Assembly: GCA_964342815.1 (NCBI GenBank)
Contig: CAYFHS010000020.1
Location: forward strand, 1-16,479
DNA from: an uncultured archaeon
Lineage (GTDB): Archaea; Thermoplasmatota; Penumbrarchaeia; JASLWR01
Length of the DNA stretch: 16,479 bases
Direction of reading: 5' to 3'
Below, piece by piece: positions 3 through 16,479 of this stretch. The notes beneath the pieces were generated by a model. That model saw only the letters and a list, made by a program, of their open reading frames with translations. It was not told the origin of the DNA and made no database searches. The position numbers and the translations under genes are program-made. Within the stretch, counting starts at the first letter, position 1; every line of letters begins with the position of its first letter.

Positions 3-194
3 GACCAGACCTTCATCAGTTTCCGTGACGGCGACCACGACGGCAAGCTGTCCATCGGTGATCGGTTCGTGATAAAAAGCTTCGAGCATGTTGACGACGA
101 CGGCAGCACGGATTCTCCTGGATTTGCCGAGCCTGGTTTCTTCTTCGAGCTTAGGGCAGGTAAAAGACTTCTCTTCGAGGAGCAGATAAAGTAA
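3..194 (+). CDS. 3' end of a hypothetical protein (5'-truncated by the window edge) with a DxDxDG Ca-binding-like loop
   Basis: Frame from nt 3 is open to TAA at 192-194: DQTFISFRDGDHDGKLSIGDRFVIKS...LLFEEQIK*. It is followed directly by a hairpin and T-tract. DGDHDGKLSIGD resembles loops seen in archaeal surface/pilin-like proteins, but the product cannot be named from this fragment. Confidence 0.65.
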   Translation, partial: DQTFISFRDGDHDGKLSIGDRFVIKSFEHVDDDGSTDSPGFAEPGFFFELRAGKRLLFEEQIK

Positions 195-205
195 ATGGAA
201 TCCTT

Positions 206-254
206 AAGCCCATCCGCGATTTACGCGGGTGGGTTTTTTTATTTTTTATTTTTT
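206..254 (+). terminator. Intrinsic terminator-like hairpin plus T-tract
   Basis: Stem aagcccatccgcg (206-218) pairs with cgcgggtgggttt (224-236): 13 bp including two G-U pairs, loop attta. It is followed by ttttttt-a-tttttt-a-tttttt, 12 nt after the stop codon, and lies between convergent genes. Confidence 0.8.
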
Positions 255-327
255 AAAAAAACCATCTATTGTAAGTGAAAGATCAATTTTTCATCGTTTT
301 TCTGGAAAGTCATACTAGGCAATGATC

Positions 328-3300
328 TTAACTCATTAATTCTTTTCGCATCTCCAAATCATCTTCTTCGGAAATCTTGAAGCGCTTTTTAAAGCCTTGA
401 AGCATGACCTCCTCGTCAGTGGAGATTACCCCATCCGCCAGGGCTGCCTTAAGCATATCCTTGTAATGCTCGATATTCTCGAGCCGGTCCTTCATGGCTT
501 CCTTGAGTTTCTCAAACATTGAATCCGCACTGCTGAACCTTCTGACCTTATCCTTTTCCAGAGCCCGAAGGATTATCGAATCCATCTCGGCAGGAATTTC
601 TGGTCTAATTGCGCTAGGCGGTGCCGGGATATGGCTCACCAGGCGGCTCATAATGGTCACGGGGTCATCCCTCATGAAAGGATTTTCGCCAGTCAGCATC
701 TCGTAGAAGACGATCCCAAGCTGGAAAACATCTGTGGACCAGTCAATTTCACCGAAATTCTCGGGACTGATCTGCTCAGGCGAACTGTAGGCTAGAGTTC
801 CTTTTCCTCCCACAGTTTTCGAAACACTCTCCGAAGCCATGAACTTACCGATACCCCAGTCTGAGATCTTGGGCCTGCCGTCCTTGGTAAATAATATATT
901 TTCGGGTTTTATGTCGCGGTGCACCGATGCCATCCTGTGAGCATATGACATACCTGATAATATTTCCATTATGAGTGAGATCGCCTCATTTACCGGCATT
1001 TTACCCTTTTTCATTTTTTCGAGAAGGTTTCCCCCTTCCATATATTCAATAACCATGTAGGGAACGGGCCGTATGTCGCCCTTGTAGAAGGTCACCACGC
1101 CCCTGTGCTTCAGTTTCTTCCAGATATCCGACTCTTCCTTGAACTTTGTCAGGACGGAGGTATCTACAGTACTGTCCATGAACTTCGGAAGTTTGATTGC
1201 GTATTCCTTCCCTTCTGGTCCGATTGCCTTGTAAACGGTGGCAAATCCACCCGTGCCAAGTTTACTTACAAGTGTATAACCAGGGATGATGGTTTTAATC
1301 GTTGGAGAAATTACTTCGGATTCGTCGGGTGGAGCTTCTTCGGCTCCCCACACTTCCGGTTCTTCTTCAGGAGTACCCCAAACCTCAACATCCTCTTCCT
1401 CGTCAAATATTTCGGTTTCGGAACTTTCCAGCACTGGCCCGATGGATGGGCCGCCAGTTTCCTCATCCTCGTCGTCCTCTTCACCTTCGTCCTCATCCTC
1501 CTCCTCCTCGTCCCAATCATCCGTATCCCGGTGCTTGACAATTAGATATCTGACAATAAAAAGAAGGATAACCGCTACGACGATAACTATCCATATCCAC
1601 AGGTCCAATCCGAGAATGCCGCCTTTATCATCACTATCATCACCCGTACCGTCATTATCTTCATCATCTTCGATATCGTCATCGTCCGAAGGGACATCCT
1701 TGGGAGTGATGTTGATTGTGAGTGACAATGTCAGCGTTTCATTGGAATAACTGATGACGATGGGAAGTTGGTATTTCTTCACAGTCAGGGAAGAAGAATC
1801 CGTAATGGTACCGGTAACAATGATTGTGTCGCCGATGGGTATGAGAACGCTTCCCTTCATTTCGAGAACACCGGAGATGATTCCGGAAGGAGCAAACTCC
1901 ACCCTGGTCGGAATATTGCCGTTATTAGTCAATGTGATGTTAAATATTGCGCTTTGCCCCTGCTCGATATTTATTTCAGTGACAATCAACTCAGCTGTGA
2001 TATTGTAAATGGGAATGAAATCCTTTTGGACCGAAAATTTCCATGTCCCACTAATACATCGGCCCTGTATCGCACCGGCTACCGGTAGGATTTTCCAGTA
2101 ATAGGTTCTATTAAATGCGAGTTCAGTTACCTGATACCATTTTTTTACTGTAATATCTATCTCCTGAAGATTTTCTTTTTCCAGGCCGAAATAGATACTG
2201 TATATGATACCCTCGGTCTCGTTAAATACACTCCAGGTTAGGTTGGTGTATGTTGTATTAATAATGGATTGATCCGTTGGAGAGTGCAGATCAACCTCCG
2301 GAACGGAAACATCCAGGTCCACAGTGAAGTTCCATGTTCCGTTCTGGTACTGACCGGTAAGGATTCCGTCATTTGGGATTATGCACCAGTAGTATGTCTC
2401 TCCATCTACAAGGTCCGTTAGTGCAGTGGTGGTACCGGTAATGTTTTCTTTTTTCAGCGGCGGCGTGGAGTTGTTCCCGAAATACAGGTCGAACACGAGG
2501 TCTCCGGGTGCATTGTCTACGTCCACAGCCTTCCATTCAAGTGTCACCTCCGTTGATGGGACAACTCCTCCATTGATGGGTGAGACCAGTTGGGAAACCG
2601 GCGCGTCGTTCACACCGGTTACAGTGATATTGAACATGTTCGTTGGAGTTGATAGATCGTGCATGTTCGTGCAGTTCGCTATCACCTGTACAGTGCCGGT
2701 CCAGTTCTCTGCGAGATATGTAACATCAAGTTTGGAACCGTTAAGTTTGAGTGTAACATTTTCTTCGTCGGAGATGTATTGGATACCATAGGTGGACGGA
2801 GTCGTATCCGAGTAGATGTCGTTGAAATAAATTACCAGATCAGTTATATTCTCTTCAGGCGTATCCTCGGTGATGAGTATCTCGGAAGCTACGTTCTCAG
2901 AGAGTTCAGGGTGTACGATTTCGGGTTCAGGGATCTTTGTCCAGTTAACTGACCAATCGAAAAGAGTGGGTGTCTGTGTAGTGCTTGATTGCAGATAGGC
3001 TTTGAAATAGAGATTGGGATGACTTTTTGGACCAAGGATTGAAAGGTCGATTGTACCTTCACTTGTGTTGTTATATTCCTGGTAAAGAATATTACCTGTA
3101 CCAGCATCGAGGATAGAGATATTGAGGTATGTATTCTGAGAGACATCTCGATTAAAATGGAATTTATCCCAGGTTTGATCTTCAGGTAATGTTATGGTTT
3201 CGGAGTGGTGAATAGAATTGTTGTAATGATCCCTGCAATGGTCCTGAATTTCCGATAGAGTAAGAATGCGATCGTGTATGGCAACTTCGTCGATTGCGCC

Positions 3301-6300
3301 ATAAAAGGCAGCTCGGACAGCATCATTTTCGTGATAATCCCATGTGCCGCCGATTTCTAAAGGGGTTGATGAACCATCGAACGGTCCATTTGAATAACTT
3401 ACACTATCTCCCAATTGAATGCCATTTACATAAAAAGAGACTTTTTTATCATTTGTGTCCCTGACCACAGTAAAATGGTACCATTCACCGCTGTTAATAT
3501 TTGCTGCTTCCGTTGATTGCCTTGCTTCATTACTGCCACTTCCATATTCCCATAGGATGCTCAATTTTTTGGCAGGGGTGATGTAAAAGTAGTATAGAAT
3601 ATTTGTATGAGATGAACCATCAGTATTCCCTTTACCCTGTAGGATAAGAGAATTCTCTTCACTCAGTGCAACATATTTAGCCCAACATTCCAATGTTAAA
3701 TCGCCTGTGATCTGTAATGGTGGATGTGCGCCATAATTCACATAATCGTCAACACCATCGAACTCCAAGGCCCCTCCCCTCACTCCATTGGTCCAATTCT
3801 CCCCACCGTGAATTGTACCATCTATCCTGTTCCCGCTGGAATCAAGCGACATATTCCCCTCGCCTTCATCGAAATGCCACAATCCCACACAATCCACATT
3901 AGGTAAGACCTCGTTATCTCCAAGACGGGCGACTCCACCATAAAAAGAAATACCTGCCCTGTAGCTTCGGTGGATCTCCTCTAGAGAGCGGGCAATATTG
4001 GAGATGCGGACCTCATCAATTAAACCATTGAAAAATTTATTATTCCCCTGATATTTTCCAACAAAAAGAGAATTCGTGTTTGCTAATTCAGAATTAACAA
4101 TATCTTCACCATGTTCTTTAATTCCATTAACATAGATCTCAATTTTAGTGTTTGTTGCTATAGCAGTAATATGTGTCCATATCCCCAATGGTATTATTGA
4201 AGTGCTTCGAACTATCTCAGCTTCCCCTTCAACTCCCGTACCAACTTGAAATTTAATATATTTTCCATTATCAGTAAACAATAATCGATATCCATAAGCA
4301 AAGTGTAAATCTATATCTGCCTTATCCAAGATCCTTGATAATGCATTTCTTGAATTCATTTTGATCCAAGCTTCAATTGTAATTTCATTAATATTATCTA
4401 GATCATCTCTACTCCCACAATCGACATAATCATCCACCCCGTCGAACTGCAGCGCTTTCCCCTGCCCCCTCGGTCCCTCCGTCACATCGCATAACTGCGC
4501 CCGCCCGGAAGTATAACGCGATTGTATCTCCGAATACGTAAGGACCCGGGAATAAACGCCCACCTCGTCGATGGTTCCGTTGAAAGCCCGATCCAGGTTC
4601 TCACTGTTGCCAATTTGTAGATTTGAATCAATTTCTGAATCCAGTTTACCCGACGGTTGTCCACCAACAAAGGGACATTGAACACCATCAATATAGATAT
4701 TAAGGTCACTCCCGTTATAGGAGAATGCAACATGCTGCCAAGTGTTCAACTTGATGGTATCTTTTGCAGAGGCTAAAAACTCAAATTGATTTCCTATCTT
4801 CATACTGACGAATAGGGAATGATCCGGGCCACCGGGGCTGGCCGTATCATGGAGATACATGCCTAAAGATCCCTTATTTGTGATTCGTCCAAATCCATAG
4901 TTCCCATATGGACCCCAACTCCTTGGAAATATCCACGCTTCCATGCTGATCTCATCGGTAATATCGAGGCTTGGGTTGTTACCGCAGTCAATGTAATCAT
5001 CCTTACCGTCGAATATCAGAGCATCACCGTTTATTCCCCCTGAGGTCCACATAGGATCATTATCATCCACTCCGTTACTGCTCCCGAGCTGACCGTTATT
5101 ATCGTAATCGCTCTCGTCAGCAACATCCTGCCCCTCGCCTTCATCGAAATGCATCAGCAGCCTCGTATTACCATAATGAGTTCCGTCATTGTCTCCCACC
5201 ATATCTTTTGCCGACCCGTCATCGAAGTTCCAGTATGCCACAGTATTTTCATCGACAATAGAATGACTCGAGCTTTTTCCATCACCTGTGAAGCTGTCAC
5301 GCCACGTATTTTCCTTCACCCATTCAACACCCCAGGAATTCAGAGCGGGTGTGGCCATCTCATTGCCTGAAAAAAAGGCCTTGAGACGGATGGAATCAAC
5401 ATCAATATCGTTGAGATGTGCAAGGTCGATGTTGGATGGAGTGAGATTGAAATATCCAGGTATTACTCCATCGTCAGAGGTATCGATAACGGTTACTCTT
5501 ATGTCGGTATCGAATGGCTCATCTTTATTCAGAGCCAGCATATCCCATTTCATATTATAGGGAAGTGATATGGCTTTGGACGTTACGGATCCATATGTAG
5601 AGGATTCCGTCACATTCTCATGTAACCTTATTTCCGAAAGTTCAAGGGCCCTGTTGTAGAGGCGGACCTCATCGATGACGCCTTTGGAGTAAATGTTTCT
5701 ATAGGTTCTTCCACCGATTTGGATGGGTATGACGTCCTTAACTAAAGCAACTGATGAAGCTGTTTCGTTAACCAGTACTCCGTTGAGATATATCTTGAAT
5801 TTCGATCCGTCGTAAGTGGCTGCAATATGATACCATGTGTTCAAGGATAATTCCGTTTCTCCCCATAGATTATTCCCCCCCCCCCCAGCATTCCATGCGA
5901 ACCTGATCACCCTAGGATTTTCGTCGCTATTATTCGTTACAAGCAATTGCCATGGATATTTTGTGTTCCATCTATTGATAATATGGAATTCGTTCTCGAA
6001 ATCAGCAATCTGGATCCAGGCTTCGACACAAATTTCTGTTACATTGAACTCATCTGCCGATTCAACTTCAACAATGTCATCCACACCGTCGAACTCAAGT
6101 GCCCCTCCGCTTTTACCATCGGTCCAGTTCTCGCTCCCGTTTATTACCCCATGATTTGCATAGATGGAGTCATCCCTGGCAATAATTCCGTTACTTTCAT
6201 CGAATTTCCAATATCCGATTGGGCCGGAGTAGCTCAATTCTGCTGGGCCGCCCGTGATATCGATATTGTCCTTCTCTTGAATGCCATTCTCATCATCCAG

Positions 6301-6504
6301 ATCGTCGAACCAGCTACCGCCGAAATCGTCGTTCTCGGTATCGGCAGCCCGGATTTCCTTGCTCGTTCCAGGATTGTCTACCCCACGGCGTGAAATGCTT
6401 TCGATGTTTTCTGTTCTCGCGTTGTACTCATATACCCAGTATATTCCTGAAAACACCTGGAACAAGAACAGAAGGACTAAGGTAAATGCTACGAACCGTT
6501 TCAT
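328..6504 (-). CDS. Giant type-I membrane Ser/Thr protein kinase with extracellular LamG (concanavalin A-like) and Ig/FN3-like domains (~2058 aa)
   Basis: ATG at 6504 (MKRFVAFTLVLLFLFQVFSG, signal peptide-like) is preceded by AGGTTGGT; the track's TTG at 6516 is an alternative start. Four LamG-type units carry the motifs W/HxFDEG, ALxFDGxDD, EAWI, WxHxA and IDEV. These are followed by a cadherin-like unit (ITED...VNDAP), two FN3-like units (LxSP...LxW...TYYW), a CARDB-like unit (FNITLTNNGN), an Asp-rich linker and a TM helix at ~1537-1602 (LWIWIVIVVAVILLFIV). After an acidic linker comes the kinase at ~520-1278 with GTGGFATV, YAIK, FKEE, HRDIKPEN, DWG, YSSPEQ and DVFQLG, then a short helical tail. 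Confidence 0.93.
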   Translation of the reverse strand: MKRFVAFTLVLLFLFQVFSGIYWVYEYNARTENIESISRRGVDNPGTSKEIRAADTENDDFGGSWFDDLDDENGIQEKDNIDITGGPAELSYSGPIGYWKFDESNGIIARDDSIYANHGVINGSENWTDGKSGGALEFDGVDDIVEVESADEFNVTEICVEAWIQIADFENEFHIINRWNTKYPWQLLVTNNSDENPRVIRFAWNAGGGGNNLWGETELSLNTWYHIAATYDGSKFKIYLNGVLVNETASSVALVKDVIPIQIGGRTYRNIYSKGVIDEVRLYNRALELSEIRLHENVTESSTYGSVTSKAISLPYNMKWDMLALNKDEPFDTDIRVTVIDTSDDGVIPGYFNLTPSNIDLAHLNDIDVDSIRLKAFFSGNEMATPALNSWGVEWVKENTWRDSFTGDGKSSSHSIVDENTVAYWNFDDGSAKDMVGDNDGTHYGNTRLLMHFDEGEGQDVADESDYDNNGQLGSSNGVDDNDPMWTSGGINGDALIFDGKDDYIDCGNNPSLDITDEISMEAWIFPRSWGPYGNYGFGRITNKGSLGMYLHDTASPGGPDHSLFVSMKIGNQFEFLASAKDTIKLNTWQHVAFSYNGSDLNIYIDGVQCPFVGGQPSGKLDSEIDSNLQIGNSENLDRAFNGTIDEVGVYSRVLTYSEIQSRYTSGRAQLCDVTEGPRGQGKALQFDGVDDYVDCGSRDDLDNINEITIEAWIKMNSRNALSRILDKADIDLHFAYGYRLLFTDNGKYIKFQVGTGVEGEAEIVRSTSIIPLGIWTHITAIATNTKIEIYVNGIKEHGEDIVNSELANTNSLFVGKYQGNNKFFNGLIDEVRISNIARSLEEIHRSYRAGISFYGGVARLGDNEVLPNVDCVGLWHFDEGEGNMSLDSSGNRIDGTIHGGENWTNGVRGGALEFDGVDDYVNYGAHPPLQITGDLTLECWAKYVALSEENSLILQGKGNTDGSSHTNILYYFYITPAKKLSILWEYGSGSNEARQSTEAANINSGEWYHFTVVRDTNDKKVSFYVNGIQLGDSVSYSNGPFDGSSTPLEIGGTWDYHENDAVRAAFYGAIDEVAIHDRILTLSEIQDHCRDHYNNSIHHSETITLPEDQTWDKFHFNRDVSQNTYLNISILDAGTGNILYQEYNNTSEGTIDLSILGPKSHPNLYFKAYLQSSTTQTPTLFDWSVNWTKIPEPEIVHPELSENVASEILITEDTPEENITDLVIYFNDIYSDTTPSTYGIQYISDEENVTLKLNGSKLDVTYLAENWTGTVQVIANCTNMHDLSTPTNMFNITVTGVNDAPVSQLVSPINGGVVPSTEVTLEWKAVDVDNAPGDLVFDLYFGNNSTPPLKKENITGTTTALTDLVDGETYYWCIIPNDGILTGQYQNGTWNFTVDLDVSVPEVDLHSPTDQSIINTTYTNLTWSVFNETEGIIYSIYFGLEKENLQEIDITVKKWYQVTELAFNRTYYWKILPVAGAIQGRCISGTWKFSVQKDFIPIYNITAELIVTEINIEQGQSAIFNITLTNNGNIPTRVEFAPSGIISGVLEMKGSVLIPIGDTIIVTGTITDSSSLTVKKYQLPIVISYSNETLTLSLTINITPKDVPSDDDDIEDDEDNDGTGDDSDDKGGILGLDLWIWIVIVVAVILLFIVRYLIVKHRDTDDWDEEEEDEDEGEEDDEDEETGGPSIGPVLESSETEIFDEEEDVEVWGTPEEEPEVWGAEEAPPDESEVISPTIKTIIPGYTLVSKLGTGGFATVYKAIGPEGKEYAIKLPKFMDSTVDTSVLTKFKEESDIWKKLKHRGVVTFYKGDIRPVPYMVIEYMEGGNLLEKMKKGKMPVNEAISLIMEILSGMSYAHRMASVHRDIKPENILFTKDGRPKISDWGIGKFMASESVSKTVGGKGTLAYSSPEQISPENFGEIDWSTDVFQLGIVFYEMLTGENPFMRDDPVTIMSRLVSHIPAPPSAIRPEIPAEMDSIILRALEKDKVRRFSSADSMFEKLKEAMKDRLENIEHYKDMLKAALADGVISTDEEVMLQGFKKRFKISEEDDLEMRKELMS
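5875..5886 (-). repeat. G12 homopolymer (C12 on + strand) inside the kinase gene, encoding GGGG
   Basis: tattCCCCCCCCCCCCagca: 12 C counted directly. These are four consecutive GGG codons in the first LamG domain. Confidence 0.95.
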
Positions 6505-6526
6505 GTTACATACCAACCTGTAAGAT

Positions 6527-11262: not shown

Positions 11263-11290
11263 TGTGATTAATCAACTCCGTGGCGATGGA

Positions 11291-13954
11291 ATGAAAAAGT
11301 TTACTCTTGTCTGTTTTTTTTTGCTGATAATCCCAATTATAATCCTGCCCGAAGAGTTTCACTTTTCACTAGGAGATGCTGCCGGAGATGATGTCGATCC
11401 CATGGCCGTTAACGTCACCACGGCTAAGCATATGGTTGATTCGATTTCGTATCTCGTCATTCTGGATGTTCAGGAAACGCCCGATTATCTTGCAGGGCAT
11501 CTGCGGAACGCTCTCTCAATACCCTTGTCTGAACTGGAAGAAAGATTGGGAGACTTGAATCCGAATAGAGAGACGCTGATTTACGGAAAAACCGGTTATG
11601 GAAGCTCCGAGGCAAGAACGATCCTTTTAGATAACGGTTTTATCAATCTCTATGATATGTGCTGTGGGATCCGGGGATGGTCGGATGCAGGTTATCCTGT
11701 TTATAAAAAATATCCCTCTGTACGAAGCGCCGTACTCAGCGTACCGGAAGGAGATTCCGTTTTCCTTTCATCGGGTGTTTATGTAGGTGATTTTACCATA
11801 AACAAGACCATTTCTCTGCTCGGGGAAAACCAAACTTCAACAATTATCGAGGGTTCTGGCAGTGGAGTATCTATAAATGTCACTTCGGATCGTACCTTAG
11901 TGTCGTCCCTGACCGTTCGTAATGGCGAAATTGGTATCCTGTCTTTCGCTACCAGTGGAACTGAGATCTCCAACTGCACGTTTTCCGGTCTTGAGACTGC
12001 AGTATCTCTTTTATCGTCCAGATCCATCAAACTACGTGATAATACGATGTCCGATTGCAGCTTGTACATGGAAGGAAAATCATTGGAACATTGGGACACC
12101 CATTCCATTGATGGGACGAACCTGGTAAATGGAAAACCGCTTTATTACGCGACGAAATTATCAAACACGGAGGTCCTGGTTGACGCGAGTCTCATCATAC
12201 TTGTCAACTGCACCAACGTCACCGTGTCCGGGCGAGATTTTAATTCGAACAGCATTGGTATTACCCTGGCTTATTCAAGCTATAGCCACATTAGGAACAA
12301 CACATTCTATTCCAACGGTATAAGCGGGATTTCAATACACGAATCGCATGATAACATGATAATCGATAATACATTCGAATCGAATGGAGATGCGGGCATC
12401 AATTTAGCGGATAGCTCGCTAAATACGTTAAATCGAAATCTTATAAAGGATAATGGTGGTTATGGTGTTTCTCTATTACGTGGAACCGATAATCGAGTCT
12501 TTAATAACACGTTCATCAGGAACAACGGCGGGATGGTTCAGGCGGAAGATCGAAGTGATAATTGTTCGTGGGATGACGGATCGTTGGGAAATTACTGGTC
12601 AGATTATAAAATGAAATATCCCGGTGCTGCGAACGATAGCAGGGTCTGGGATACTCCCTATTTGATCCGTGGTACCCCCGAAATTTCGGACAGGTATCCT
12701 GCTGTTACCCCTACCGTAGCATTATCCAGTTACCCGGTATCCGATGCCGGACCCGACATTAATGTTATCCAGCATACCCTGGTGAGATTTGATGGCTCCT
12801 ATAGTTTCGACAAGGGGCAAATCACGAATTATACTTGGACTTTTCAATATGATGGCAAACCGGTGATTTTGAACGGAATAATATCTAGCTTCATTTTTCA
12901 TCTTGCTGGTATATACACGGTAACATTGAATGTAACTAATAGTCTGGGTCTCAGTGACCATGATGTGATAATCCTGACAGTTAATGACATTGAACCTCCC
13001 ACGGCAGACGCGGGAGAGGATCGAACAATCGACCAGTTCACATTGGTATTTTTCCTGGGGAAGAACTGTTCCGATAACATCTTGGTGGTGAACTACACGT
13101 GGTCGTTTAAATATGGGATGGACACCATCGTTCTGCATGGTTATAACGCTTCATTCAGATTCCAGGCGGCTGGTCGGTATAATGTGACCCTAAAGATATT
13201 CGATGCCAGCGCTAATTGGAATATCGATCAGATAGAGGTACTCGTAAGGGATATCACTCCTCCAGTGGCTAGTGCAGGAGATGATCAAAATCTTCCTCAA
13301 GGATCCCCTTTTATGTTCAACGCGGTAGAAAGCCACGATGATTCCGGGATACTCAACTACAGTTGGTCCTTTCGTGATGATGATTCGGAAATTCTCCTTT
13401 TTGGGATCCAATCTAGCTATACATTCAATCAACCCGGTGAATATCTGGTGATACTCAATGTAACGGATGTTGCAGGTCTTACGGGAACGGATATAATAAA
13501 TATTTCTGTGATTGACATTTATCCGCCGGAGGCAATTGCTGGTCCCGATATCAACATTCGCCAGCATGATAGCGTGGTTTTTAACGGCAGTGGTAGCAGC
13601 GATAATCAGGGGATCAGCAATTTCAGCTGGTCATTTGCCCATGGAGGTCGGAATATAACTCTTTTCGGTGGATCCGTGTCATACACCTTCGATCATCCCG
13701 GTAATTATACGGTCGTTATGAAGGTCAAAGATGATCAGGGACTGCAGGATGTGGATTTTTTGTACGTAAATGTTGAAAGGATTAATGAAAACGGGTCCGA
13801 TAATGGATGGTTTTACGGTGTCCTCGGCATAATCATTCTTTTTTCCGCACTAATGGTTTTGATATTAACTGTGAGGAGAGGTAAATCCTCAAATTCCATG
13901 GGGGATAAAAACGGGGAACAAGAATCTGAAGAAATGTCTATAAATGGAAAATAA
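11291..13954 (+). CDS. Surface protein: signal peptide, rhodanese-like domain, NosD/CASH-type parallel beta-helix, four PKD domains, C-terminal TM anchor
   Basis: Likely ATG at 11291 (MKKFTLVCFFLLIIPIIIL); the track's GTG at 11264 is an alternative start. Rhodanese signature: ILDVQ...YLAGHLRNALSIP...NGFINLY...GIRGWSDAGYPV. Beta-helix repeats: N.I.NNTF..N...GI.L, with GNYWSDY. Four PKD units begin PVSDAGPD, PTADAGED, PVASAGDD and PEAIAGPD. TM: WFYGVLGIIILFSALMVLILTV followed by RRGK. Confidence 0.9.
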   Translation: MKKFTLVCFFLLIIPIIILPEEFHFSLGDAAGDDVDPMAVNVTTAKHMVDSISYLVILDVQETPDYLAGHLRNALSIPLSELEERLGDLNPNRETLIYGKTGYGSSEARTILLDNGFINLYDMCCGIRGWSDAGYPVYKKYPSVRSAVLSVPEGDSVFLSSGVYVGDFTINKTISLLGENQTSTIIEGSGSGVSINVTSDRTLVSSLTVRNGEIGILSFATSGTEISNCTFSGLETAVSLLSSRSIKLRDNTMSDCSLYMEGKSLEHWDTHSIDGTNLVNGKPLYYATKLSNTEVLVDASLIILVNCTNVTVSGRDFNSNSIGITLAYSSYSHIRNNTFYSNGISGISIHESHDNMIIDNTFESNGDAGINLADSSLNTLNRNLIKDNGGYGVSLLRGTDNRVFNNTFIRNNGGMVQAEDRSDNCSWDDGSLGNYWSDYKMKYPGAANDSRVWDTPYLIRGTPEISDRYPAVTPTVALSSYPVSDAGPDINVIQHTLVRFDGSYSFDKGQITNYTWTFQYDGKPVILNGIISSFIFHLAGIYTVTLNVTNSLGLSDHDVIILTVNDIEPPTADAGEDRTIDQFTLVFFLGKNCSDNILVVNYTWSFKYGMDTIVLHGYNASFRFQAAGRYNVTLKIFDASANWNIDQIEVLVRDITPPVASAGDDQNLPQGSPFMFNAVESHDDSGILNYSWSFRDDDSEILLFGIQSSYTFNQPGEYLVILNVTDVAGLTGTDIINISVIDIYPPEAIAGPDINIRQHDSVVFNGSGSSDNQGISNFSWSFAHGGRNITLFGGSVSYTFDHPGNYTVVMKVKDDQGLQDVDFLYVNVERINENGSDNGWFYGVLGIIILFSALMVLILTVRRGKSSNSMGDKNGEQESEEMSINGK

Positions 13955-14098
13955 AATTGAGCGAGGATTGGCAACACAAAAATAGAAGGATTATTTGATA
14001 AAAGATAAAACCAATAACCTCAATGATATGAAAAATAGGATGATCGATCTAGGAAAAACAGTATTTATACAATGGGAAAAATTTGATGGGTGATAAAA

Positions 14099-16479
14099 AT
14101 GAGGATATTAAAGTACTGCATCGTGCTGATATTGATAATAATGCTACACACTGGGATGTTCATGGGATTGTTGGATAATTCCACAGGCGGGTATGTTCCC
14201 CCACCAGAAAGAAAGCGGGGTGATGCTCCCCCGTCATTAGTAGTGGATAACACGCCTTCTACGGCAAACACGGGTGAGATGTTCAATTTCTCTGCGAATT
14301 TTTCCGATGATTTTTCCGTAACGGATGTTTATGTGAATTATACTTACGACAACAATTCGTACTATAACATTTCTATGAACAATGTCTTTAATGAAACATG
14401 GAACGCCACAATAACAATAAATCAAACTGCACTTACACTGGATTATTACTTTATATATGTGGATAATGCCACAAACACCAATTCTTCACAGCTAACACGA
14501 ATAACCATCTTGGATACGATCCCACCCGTATCTGAAGCGGGACCCGATATCGAGGTGCCGCAATATGGTGCTCTCTGGTTTGATGGCAGCGGAAGCGAGG
14601 ATAATCGGGGTATAATAAATTATACATGGTTCTGGTGGTGCCACTTTTGCCATATATTCAAATATGCATATGGTGAAATTGTAAATATGTCCTGGCTTAC
14701 GGACATGGTTGATAATATCACAATGAATCTAACCGTTCGGGATGCAGCAGGAAATGAAGATCTCGATTCAATGGTTATTTTGATCCTCGACCGTGAAACT
14801 CCCATAGCCGAAATCGGAGATGACCTGTATATCGTGGACCAGTTCCAGCTTGTAAATTTCAATGCTTACAATAGTTGGGATAATGTCGAAATAACGAATT
14901 ATACCTGGATATTTGATGAGAATAATACCGATATATACCTCTACGGGATCTCTGTGAATTATTCGTTTAGTTTTCACGGTGAATATATCGTTGCGTTGAG
15001 GGTCACCGATGGAGAGGGGAACAGCGGGCCCGGCAGCTGGGATTCGATAAGAGTTATAGTTCTCGATATCTCTCCGCCCATAGCTAATGCAGGAGAGGAT
15101 GTCGTAATCGACCAGTTCATGACAGTGGTATTTAACGGCAGCGGGAGTACGGAAATGGTCGATTATGTCTGGAATTTTACTCATAATCGAGTTATGCAGT
15201 ATTTAACTGGGGTTTCACCGGAATACCATTTCTACAGCGCGGGAGTATATCTGGTGACATTGAATGTAAGCGATTGGCGGGACAATTGGTGTCTGGATAC
15301 CATGACGGTGACGGTTCTGGACATTGAAGATCCTGTTGCCAAGGCCGGGGAGGACCTGGAGATACTTTTGGGTGAATTCTTCGTACTGAACGCCAGTAAC
15401 AGCTGGGATATGGTGTCTGTGGTTAACTATTCCTGGAGTTTTTATTACAACGGTACGGATCATGTACTATATGGAGAAGAATTGACATTCGCATTCGAAC
15501 TGATGGGTGTTTATAATATAACCCTTCGTGTTGAAGACGAAAGGGGAAATTACGGGACTGATGTTTGCACGGTAACCACAATCGACCGTAAAGATCCACA
15601 GGTAAATGCCGGATCGGATATAGTGATCAATGAAGGGGGAACTGCAGTTCTCGATGGAAGTGGAACAACCGATCATTCGCCCATTGCAAATTACAGCTGG
15701 TCTTTTACATACTACGGTAACGAAAAAAAGTTATACGGAGTGAAGGTCTCCTTCGGCTTCGATATTCCGGGAGTTTATAACGTCTTTTTGCTTGTAAAAG
15801 ATATTTGGGGAAATGTTGGTTGGGATAATTTGCTGATCAGAGTGATGGACACGACACCACCTACCGCCTATGCGGGGGATAATATATTAACTACTGAAGG
15901 AAAGACCGTCATCCTGAACGGCAGCGGTGAAGATAACGTTGGAATTTCGAATTACAGCTGGAGATTTGAATACAACGGAGAGCTTCATCAATTATTTGGA
16001 AAATTGGTGCCATTTACGTTTGAGCTTGCCGGAAACTATACTATCTACTTGAAGGTCCGAGACGATGATGGTAACGTGGGAAACGACTCTATATGGGTGA
16101 ATGTTACTCCTCTTTTGTCGGATGATGATCCCGATGATGACGATAATGATGACGACAGCGATACTGGTGAAAGTTCCTCTGATCTCGACAAAATCAAGAT
16201 ATTGATCTCGGTGGCCGTGATTGTCGTATTTATTGTAGTATATTTGATCATTATAATATCGAAGAGGCGGAAGGAGCAGCAGTCATCATTGACACTTGAT
16301 GGTATTGAGGATGAAAGTATTGGTGAAACGGTGGATGAAGGTATTGAGGAAACGGTTGGTGAAAGTATTGAGGAAACGGTGGATGAAGGTATTGAGGAAA
16401 CGGTGGATGAAGGTATTGAGGAAACGGTGGATGAAAGTATTGAGGAAACGGTTGATGAAAGTTTTGAGGATACGGTTGA
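14099..16479 (+). CDS. Surface protein with six PKD domains, TM anchor and repetitive acidic cytoplasmic tail (3'-truncated; absent from the ORF track because it has no stop in the window)
   Basis: GGGTGAT RBS at 14088-14094, ATG at 14099. Manual translation is open to the window end: MRILKYCIVLILIIMLHTGMFMGLL (signal), an Ig-like unit, then PKD units PVSEAGPD, PIAEIGDD, PIANAGED, PVAKAGED, PQVNAGSD and PTAYAGDN. These are followed by DDDPDDDDNDDD, TM ILISVAVIVVFIVVYLIIIIS, KRRK and the repeats. Confidence 0.9.
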   Translation, partial: MRILKYCIVLILIIMLHTGMFMGLLDNSTGGYVPPPERKRGDAPPSLVVDNTPSTANTGEMFNFSANFSDDFSVTDVYVNYTYDNNSYYNISMNNVFNETWNATITINQTALTLDYYFIYVDNATNTNSSQLTRITILDTIPPVSEAGPDIEVPQYGALWFDGSGSEDNRGIINYTWFWWCHFCHIFKYAYGEIVNMSWLTDMVDNITMNLTVRDAAGNEDLDSMVILILDRETPIAEIGDDLYIVDQFQLVNFNAYNSWDNVEITNYTWIFDENNTDIYLYGISVNYSFSFHGEYIVALRVTDGEGNSGPGSWDSIRVIVLDISPPIANAGEDVVIDQFMTVVFNGSGSTEMVDYVWNFTHNRVMQYLTGVSPEYHFYSAGVYLVTLNVSDWRDNWCLDTMTVTVLDIEDPVAKAGEDLEILLGEFFVLNASNSWDMVSVVNYSWSFYYNGTDHVLYGEELTFAFELMGVYNITLRVEDERGNYGTDVCTVTTIDRKDPQVNAGSDIVINEGGTAVLDGSGTTDHSPIANYSWSFTYYGNEKKLYGVKVSFGFDIPGVYNVFLLVKDIWGNVGWDNLLIRVMDTTPPTAYAGDNILTTEGKTVILNGSGEDNVGISNYSWRFEYNGELHQLFGKLVPFTFELAGNYTIYLKVRDDDGNVGNDSIWVNVTPLLSDDDPDDDDNDDDSDTGESSSDLDKIKILISVAVIVVFIVVYLIIIISKRRKEQQSSLTLDGIEDESIGETVDEGIEETVGESIEETVDEGIEETVDEGIEETVDESIEETVDESFEDTV
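16310..16479 (+). repeat. Coding 24-bp tandem repeat (at least 7 copies) encoding DE(G/S)IEETV
   Basis: Units start at 16310, 16334, 16358, 16382, 16406, 16430 and 16454, with consensus gatgaaRgtattgaggaaacggtK. They are in frame with the ATG at 14099 and continue off the window edge. Confidence 0.95.

Follow-up and report, generated by a model that had tools for sequence, protein, structure and literature searches.

How are the LamG domains of a predicted archaeal receptor kinase arranged: one behind the other, or one inside another? The question is raised by a stretch of 16,479 nucleotides, which in its full length we call the window, from contig CAYFHS010000020.1 (assembly GCA_964342815.1) of an uncultured Thermoplasmatota archaeon (Penumbrarchaeia; JASLWR01). 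Its minus strand carries an open reading frame (ORF) of 2062 residues (aa), window 328-6516, by which residues are numbered throughout. We find that one domain of its ectodomain, LamG B, is interrupted by a complete second one, LamG C, and that a scaffold domain that hosts LamGs is itself split, giving the layout scaffold1[LamG A] - scaffold2[LamG B[LamG C]][LamG D]. The ectodomain is very probably a tree of jelly-roll domains made by insertion of domain into domain, not a chain.

Pfam profile Laminin_G_3 (PF13385) gave four full-profile matches in the protein, to LamG A (aa 143-296), C (503-665), B (692-849) and D (920-1091), all scoring 86.7-100.6 bits against a gathering score of 27.6 bits. 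The initial annotation had predicted a split match at the interrupted domain. None was seen, and none could be: the Pfam model begins at the 'ALxFDG' strand and leaves outside the two N-terminal strands found in ordinary LamG_3 domains of this family, the motif 'hWxFDE..G...D.SG.gN.G.l.G', which we call N1. We used a purpose-built N1 hidden Markov model (HMM), made from 559 canonical examples and refined by iterated searches, which returned 1492 matches of >=6 bits on real sequences versus 1 on reversed sequences. It places four N1 motifs in the protein, at aa 102 (28.7 bits), 426 (11.2 bits), 454 (28.0 bits) and 879 (31.6 bits), so that N1 (N) and Pfam-type bodies (B) follow each other as N B, then N N B B, then N B. 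Body B is directly preceded by 'RAQLCDVTEGPRGQGK' only, not by an N1.

The junctions can be placed closely. TVAYWNFDDGSAKDMVGDNDGTHYGNT occupies aa 424-450 (window 5167-5247), RLLMHFDEGEG...SGRAQLC occupies aa 451-676 (window 4489-5166), and DVTEGPRGQGKALQFDGVDDYV begins at aa 677 (window 4488). Every segment quoted in the initial annotation was located at, or no more than 3 bases from, the coordinates given there, and its claim of a LamG that starts, is interrupted by a complete LamG and then resumes holds: LamG C lies between aa 425-450 and aa 677-856. When 'WNFDD...THYGNT' is spliced to 'DVTEGPRGQGKALQFDG', the distance from W to FDG is 40 residues, as compared with 42 in LamG A; this match in length indicates a clean cut and puts the earlier coordinates right within one codon.

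To see how the two parts of LamG B relate in space we used AlphaFold2 on aa 400-880. A longer target, aa 400-1195 (796 residues), was dropped in its favor when MAFFT rows jumped between paralogous LamGs. Aligned with it were a fragment of an orthologue, N-N-B-B units from distant homologues (twelve, all collinear and each an exact substring of a stored protein) and short paralogue pieces. The resulting model has a mean predicted local distance difference test (pLDDT) score of 80 and a predicted template modeling (pTM) score of 0.72; the flanking scaffold pieces, whose partner segments lie outside the construct, fall below 50 in pLDDT. The orphan N1 at aa 425-450 (N1B) is modeled as two strands, model residues 26-31 and 47-49 (aa 425-430 and 446-448), at pLDDT 81-86. 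We then compared the model with solved structures using VIA-align, whose output consists of the first and last aligned residues only. Domain 4 of AbnA (5hp6) aligns to LamG C and its own N1 over 200 residues (model 51..271, Z 23.4). The same domain (5hon_A, 206 aa) aligns to N1B plus body B over 195 residues (model 23..454, Z 22.8) at a root-mean-square deviation (rmsd) of 2.6, thereby spanning an insert of 221 residues. No pair but N1B and body B can satisfy a rigid-body alignment that runs sequentially over 23..454 at 2.6 A. The LamG domains of the model thus superpose on solved LamG-like domains as a curved two-sheet jelly roll; LamG B, interrupted in sequence, is predicted to form one fold from its two parts, and LamG C is complete; its host, LamG B, is itself inserted in the scaffold. 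The expectation that discontinuous segments would fold as a single domain is borne out in the model for LamG B, by the confident N1B strands and by the alignment across the insert.

The domain that carries these LamGs is, by its predicted fold, a beta-sandwich of ~135 aa resembling a carbohydrate-binding module (CBM), and the ectodomain has two copies of it. As proposed earlier, this scaffold occurs twice in split form: the motifs W.D.L, GG.A.L and TP.L..W.V.W are found two times, and the scaffold HMM matches in pieces. An HMM of uninterrupted copies matches with its positions 1-25 at aa 397-421 (19.6 bits), 39-133 at aa 1100-1194 (85 bits) and 34-132 at aa 303-400 (62 bits). Two fixed loops receive the inserts, loop alpha behind the first strand (W.DSF) and loop beta behind the strand GG.x.L. 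In copy 1 loop beta is occupied, by LamG A; in copy 2 both loops are, alpha by LamG B and beta by LamG D. Segment b of copy 2 (aa 857-874) is too short for an HMM match.

Paralogues in the same genome show the scaffold with and without inserts. An HMM of the repeated C-terminal module found 43 copies in 24 large ORFs, and members of the scaffold family, whole and split, are present in 29 of the 61 related genomes searched. Uninterrupted units (state 0; five clear copies) read 'W.DSF.G.GK...N..iS...' (~38 aa) followed by '[RK]S..I.LP...TP.L..W.V.W'. State 1 has a single LamG behind 'GG.l.L.dn..p', at loop beta, and state 2 has an additional LamG behind 'W.DSF.G.GK', at loop alpha. Copy 1 of this protein (aa 62-402) is in state 1, and seven paralogue units, 22-34% identical to it, share its order of parts collinearly; copy 2 is in state 2 with the nest added. 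The proposal that the ectodomain grew by repeated loop insertion is therefore supported for the scaffold, as the paralogues carry 0, 1 or 2 LamGs or inserts of another kind, and only these two loops receive them. AlphaFold2 modeled an uninterrupted paralogue copy (25 aligned sequences) with eleven strands at pLDDT 90.7 and pTM 0.84, and the insertion sites correspond to its loops 12-18 and 34-38. In VIA searches this model matched a reelin subrepeat, the Fbs1 sugar-binding domain, CBM16, CBM61 and CBM4 (Z 10.0-10.7, 119-129 of 137 residues, rmsd ~3 A), and Foldseek returned an alginate CBM at an E-value of 9e-5. At the sequence level the scaffold profile had no match at E<=10 among PDB sequences and nothing meaningful in Pfam, where the best E was 0.016 (CBM_2, for one of five members).

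Other members of the family carry other insertions. In one paralogue (L101, G000:C4:78658-80505, minus; tokens N b N B e S) a cassette of DUF2341 and a complete LamG_3 lies within a LamG_3 body, behind 'TVEAWMKP', which marks a second LamG insertion site distinct from the beta2-beta3 hairpin. Two more LamG_3 bodies are split by propeller repeats of the BNR/sortilin/Reg_prop type, of ~280 aa in L102 (G000:C2:265360-267222, minus) and ~235 aa in L103 (G000:C25:40767-42575, plus). In L104 (G000:C2:336574-337842, plus) loop beta of the scaffold holds a ~330-aa block containing DUF2341 in place of a LamG. Judged from these sequences, insertion appears to be a habit of the scaffold/LamG gene family.

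The nest itself recurs in homologues. A full-library search with aa 400-880 returned proteins whose best stretch spans the query from end to end at equal length, and an orthologue fragment from another genus of the same family (65% identical) has the same S-N-N-b start before it is cut by the end of its contig. We tokenized 227 homologues, together with the ORFs of the same genome, using the N1 and body HMMs. Consecutive N1 motifs occurred in 31 proteins. Of the 52 runs of k>=2 consecutive N1, 45 have k bodies behind them, no more and no fewer (33 with k=2, seven with k=3, three with k=4 and two with k=6); the token strings include NNBB, NNNBBB and NNNNBBBB. Seventeen proteins have as many N1 motifs as bodies, and in 16 of them the string, read as brackets, is balanced; shuffled tokens gave 2.2 balanced strings on average and a maximum of 9 in 2000 trials. 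Two proteins, P0092 and P0149, have the six-deep string NNNNNNBBBBBB, which was checked by eye. Among 38 clean N-N-B-B units of distant homologues, successive N1 motifs are spaced 28-41 aa apart and the end of the inner body lies 18-34 aa from the start of the outer one. A scan of species-representative genomes for the junction motif found nests in metagenome-assembled genomes (MAGs) labeled Hydrothermarchaeota (NNBB), Aenigmatarchaeota (NNNBBB, NNNNBBNBB...), Woesearchaeota and Nanoarchaeota, and among homologues that have a name, nests occur in Micrarchaeia and Diapherotrites, for example. One protein of an Aenigmatarchaeota MAG (P0058, also L097; contig JAUWZW010000006.1) has the string NNNNBBNBBB, in which a single host LamG seemingly takes two successive inserts, before and after beta2, directly behind '...DESAYDNT' and '...GRIYGNT'; from this sequence the LamG hairpin may offer two adjacent entry points.

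The point of entry has a signature of its own. G[NS][TP] stands directly before 77% of inner N1 motifs (n=96), compared with 3% of ordinary ones (n=1281). The inner N1 has the consensus 'GtiYGNTvLLlHfDEg.G.TAyDeS.ygNNGT', which that of this protein, 'GTHYGNTRLLMHFDEGEGQDVADESDYDNNG', matches. The conserved entry junction can be written G-x-x-Y-G-N-T / x-L-L-x-H-x-D-E, and at the exit a helix is followed by W/x..G..G.AL.FDG. Since tandem duplication gives N-B-N-B and not N-N-B-B, a copy of the whole unit must enter at the hairpin. A separate subfamily of inner bodies was not found by BLAST of bodies labeled inner, outer or plain, the stack-based labels being noisy. LamG C appears to be inner-type at its junction and not in its body, and because that body is closest to ordinary LamGs it does not show a common origin of this nest with those of the distant homologues.

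Several observations weigh against the tree-like arrangement. The pairing of N1B with body B rests on pLDDT, secondary structure and the end residues of a structural alignment, and AlphaFold2 worked from a shallow alignment of 23 rows. The N1 score of N1B is low, at the 10th percentile, and in 384 LamG bodies of the data set no N1 was detected, so that a body without N1 is not impossible. BLAST of the LamG C body finds ordinary LamGs before inner ones. For the scaffold, the split in this protein is inferred from paralogues and from split HMM matches, the fold model is that of a paralogue, and neither the middle piece of copy 2 (aa 857-874) nor the N-terminal piece of copy 1 has an HMM match of its own.

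The alternative that survives these data best, although we consider it improbable, is a different pairing, in which N1B would belong with body C and N1C with body B, or N1B would form an extra edge strand on LamG C or on the scaffold. The pairing is read indirectly, from the ends of an alignment, which leaves room for such an exchange. However, 200 of the 206 residues of AbnA domain 4 align to one continuous part of the model, 51..271, in which N1C (model 52-76) lies together with body C, and the 195 residues aligned on 23..454 leave N1B and body B as the only rigid body that fits. A swap would also require long crossing linkers, whereas only 2-3 residues are observed between N1 motifs and 18-34 between bodies.

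A shade less probable again is that the domains are beads on a string with a leftover among them: aa 425-450 would be what is left, after decay, of a LamG that was duplicated or deleted in part, serving as a linker only, and LamG B would either do without N-terminal strands or borrow aa 677-686 for them. The low score of N1B (11.2 bits versus 28-32 for the other three) and the 384 bodies without a detectable N1 favor this reading. The sequence, however, is predicted as two confident strands, and the alignment to a single LamG runs from model residue 23 to 454. N1B is moreover identical at 21 of 27 positions in the orthologue (G003), which is 65% identical overall, and random leftovers are not expected to give the agreement between N1 and body runs seen in 45 of 52 cases. 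That a chimeric contig, a collapsed repeat or faulty gene calling produced a false domain order has a negligible chance, even for a repetitive gene from a MAG of 116 contigs with 3.2% contamination, given an ORF unbroken over 6.2 kb, an identical protein cluster on 3 contigs, the same junction in an independent genome of another genus and the same order in dozens of unrelated assemblies. The parts of the nested arrangement are listed in Table 1.

Table 1. Parts of the predicted receptor kinase, from the N-terminus, with the evidence for each
Feature	Residues	Window	Strand	Evidence or remark
Whole ORF	2062 aa	328..6516	minus	type-I membrane receptor-like Ser/Thr kinase (predicted)
N-terminal hydrophobic segment, MKRFVAFTLVLLFLFQVFSGI	5-25	6442..6504	minus	read from sequence
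Scaffold copy 1, N-terminal segment (SWFDDL...ITGGPAELS)	66-98	6223..6321	minus	collinear with seven one-insert paralogue units; motifs
LamG A, complete, in loop beta of scaffold copy 1	99-302	5611..6222	minus	Pfam LamG_3 92 bits; N1 28.7 bits
Scaffold copy 1, C-terminal segment	303-400	5317..5610	minus	scaffold HMM profile 34-132, 62 bits; scafC HMM
Scaffold copy 2, segment a (KENTWRDSFTGDGK...)	401-424	5245..5316	minus	scaffold HMM profile 1-25, 19.6 bits
LamG B, strands beta1-beta2, the orphan N1 (N1B)	425-450	5167..5244	minus	N1 HMM, AlphaFold2, VIA, orthologue
LamG C, complete, in the beta2-beta3 turn of LamG B	451-676	4489..5166	minus	Pfam LamG_3 90 bits; AbnA domain 4 alignment; inner-type junction motif
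LamG B, remainder, beta3 to C-terminal helix	677-856	3949..4488	minus	Pfam LamG_3 101 bits; AlphaFold2 and VIA
Scaffold copy 2, segment b (SFYGGVARLGDNEVLPNV)	857-874	3895..3948	minus	equivalent motif at equivalent position in two-insert paralogues
LamG D, in loop beta of scaffold copy 2	875-1099	3220..3894	minus	Pfam LamG_3 87 bits; N1 31.6 bits
Scaffold copy 2, segment c	1100-1195	2932..3219	minus	scaffold HMM profile 39-133, 85 bits
Stalk	1196-1638	1603..2931	minus	no Pfam family match
Transmembrane helix, core	1639-1655	1552..1602	minus	read from sequence
Hanks-type protein kinase domain	1747-1998	523..1278	minus	Pfam Pkinase 150.8 bits and motifs

The ectodomain belongs to a protein encoded in one unbroken reading frame of 6.2 kb, in which an N-terminal hydrophobic segment, a signal peptide or an anchor to judge from its sequence, is followed by ~1600 aa of ectodomain, one transmembrane helix, an acidic linker and a Hanks-type kinase. 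Translation likely starts at Met5 (window 6504), since the identical protein cluster P0002, which occurs on 3 contigs, is 2058 aa long. The kinase domain scores 150.8 bits against PF00069 (cut-off 31.7) and has a GTGGFATV loop, the AIK lysine and HRDIKPEN, with DWG replacing DFG; by profile and catalytic motifs it classes as a Hanks-type (eukaryote-like) Ser/Thr protein kinase. A Pfam search of the C-terminal tail behind it (aa ~2000-2062, window 328-520, '...DGVISTDEEVMLQGFKKRFKISEEDDLEMRKELMS') gave no match. The source genome is a MAG of 4.35 Mb in 116 contigs (89% complete, 3.2% contamination), and its full-length small-subunit rRNA scores 1513 bits against the archaeal model. The coding strand has a run of 12 G within LamG A (window 5875-5886, minus; codons for the residues AGGGGNN, aa 209-215), the longest homopolymer noticed in the gene, at which the gain or loss of a single base would truncate the protein early. 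Two other large surface-type proteins are encoded nearby on the plus strand, one with rhodanese, NosD/beta-helix and PKD repeats (window 11264-13954) and one with PKD repeats that runs off the window (14090-16477).

Comparison with solved and described proteins helps to delimit what is particular to this arrangement. The individual LamGs belong to the Laminin_G_3/ConA-like fold: all four pass the Pfam threshold, and the modeled ones align to domain 4 of the Geobacillus arabinanase AbnA (PDB 5HON) over 195-200 residues at Z 22.8-23.4. In solved proteins with several LamGs, such as laminin LG4-5 and neurexin, the domains are consecutive, unlike the nested LamG B and C. No solved chain has two domains placed relative to each other as in the model; the best query TM-score was 0.36, and pairs from laminin LG4-5 superposed only at an rmsd of 15-17 A. 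The scaffold resembles, in its predicted fold only, CBM and galactose-binding-like jelly rolls (CBM16, CBM61, CBM4, CBM86, the Fbs1 sugar-binding domain, a reelin subrepeat and MAM), from which it differs in having no sequence match in Pfam or PDB and in hosting whole-domain inserts at two loops.

The protein as a whole shares its predicted topology of signal peptide, ectodomain, one transmembrane helix and cytoplasmic kinase with receptor-like Hanks kinases, among them bacterial PASTA kinases (e.g. PknB) and plant lectin receptor kinases. Plant L-type lectin receptor kinases present a ConA-like fold outward. The archaeal protein differs from both in its origin, in its ~1600-aa nested jelly-roll ectodomain and in having DWG for DFG; it is like the plant kinases in its domain types.

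Recursive domain insertion is already known, and its clearest case is the SI3 region of cyanobacterial RNA polymerase beta', in which sandwich-barrel hybrid motifs are inserted recursively to six levels (PMC13114784, Protein Sci 2026). The two are alike in that a domain type hosts its own kind, as A1-B1-C-B2-A2, over several levels, and the LamG homologues P0092 and P0149 likewise reach six. SI3 differs in being another fold, in a cytoplasmic enzyme, and a single lineage-specific case; the unit of the LamG nest is an extracellular jelly roll, its insertion site is a single fixed hairpin whose junction motif is conserved, and the design is found in many surface proteins from several groups of archaea. 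We found no description of a LamG inside a LamG in the literature on nested or LamG-in-LamG architectures, and the supplements of PMC13114784 make no mention of ConA-like or LamG domains. What is new here is that the carrier is an archaeal receptor kinase, that a new CBM-like domain acts as host through two sockets, that the order of the parts follows a bracket grammar, that the inner junction is conserved, and that nests in distant homologues reach a depth of six.

The arrangement suggests how such an ectodomain might be built and used. Three layers would be stacked in it, the scaffold, LamG B and LamG C. The first and last strands of a LamG probably lie side by side, and because they adjoin, a whole LamG could plug into a tight hairpin of its host and leave it undisturbed. 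The product would be a compact, rigid and branched head presenting four LamG faces for recognition of a ligand, probably a glycan, and ligand binding would be passed through the single membrane helix to the cytoplasmic kinase. That this head is a lectin we infer from the fold alone.

For annotation the consequence is direct. Linear profile annotation reads four LamGs in a row, and neither the scaffold nor the nesting shows in it; databases of domain architecture, and reasoning from structure about surface proteins of this kind, are therefore systematically wrong. The sequence grammar, in which runs of N1 equal runs of bodies, allows such proteins to be found on a large scale. For protein engineering, the insertion of a LamG at the YGNT hairpin offers a template. 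A jelly roll that nests recursively in its own fold, at a fixed socket whose junction is conserved, lends itself naturally to binding heads that are rigid, branched and multivalent.

For the biology of these archaea, the nested LamG as the putative sensor of a receptor kinase would tie the design to signaling, beyond adhesion only, and other uncultured archaea have giant surface proteins of the same design, with up to six layers. Whether this amounts to a general principle is evenly balanced: LamG may be a self-recursive block with a dedicated, conserved socket, the beta2-beta3 hairpin (entry YGNT / xLLxHxDE, exit AGKAKxxxW..GK.G.AL.FDG), which archaea of this lineage, of the DPANN groups and of Hydrothermarchaeota would use to build branched lectin trees of up to six layers by a strict bracket grammar, a general mechanism by which surface recognition proteins would be varied.

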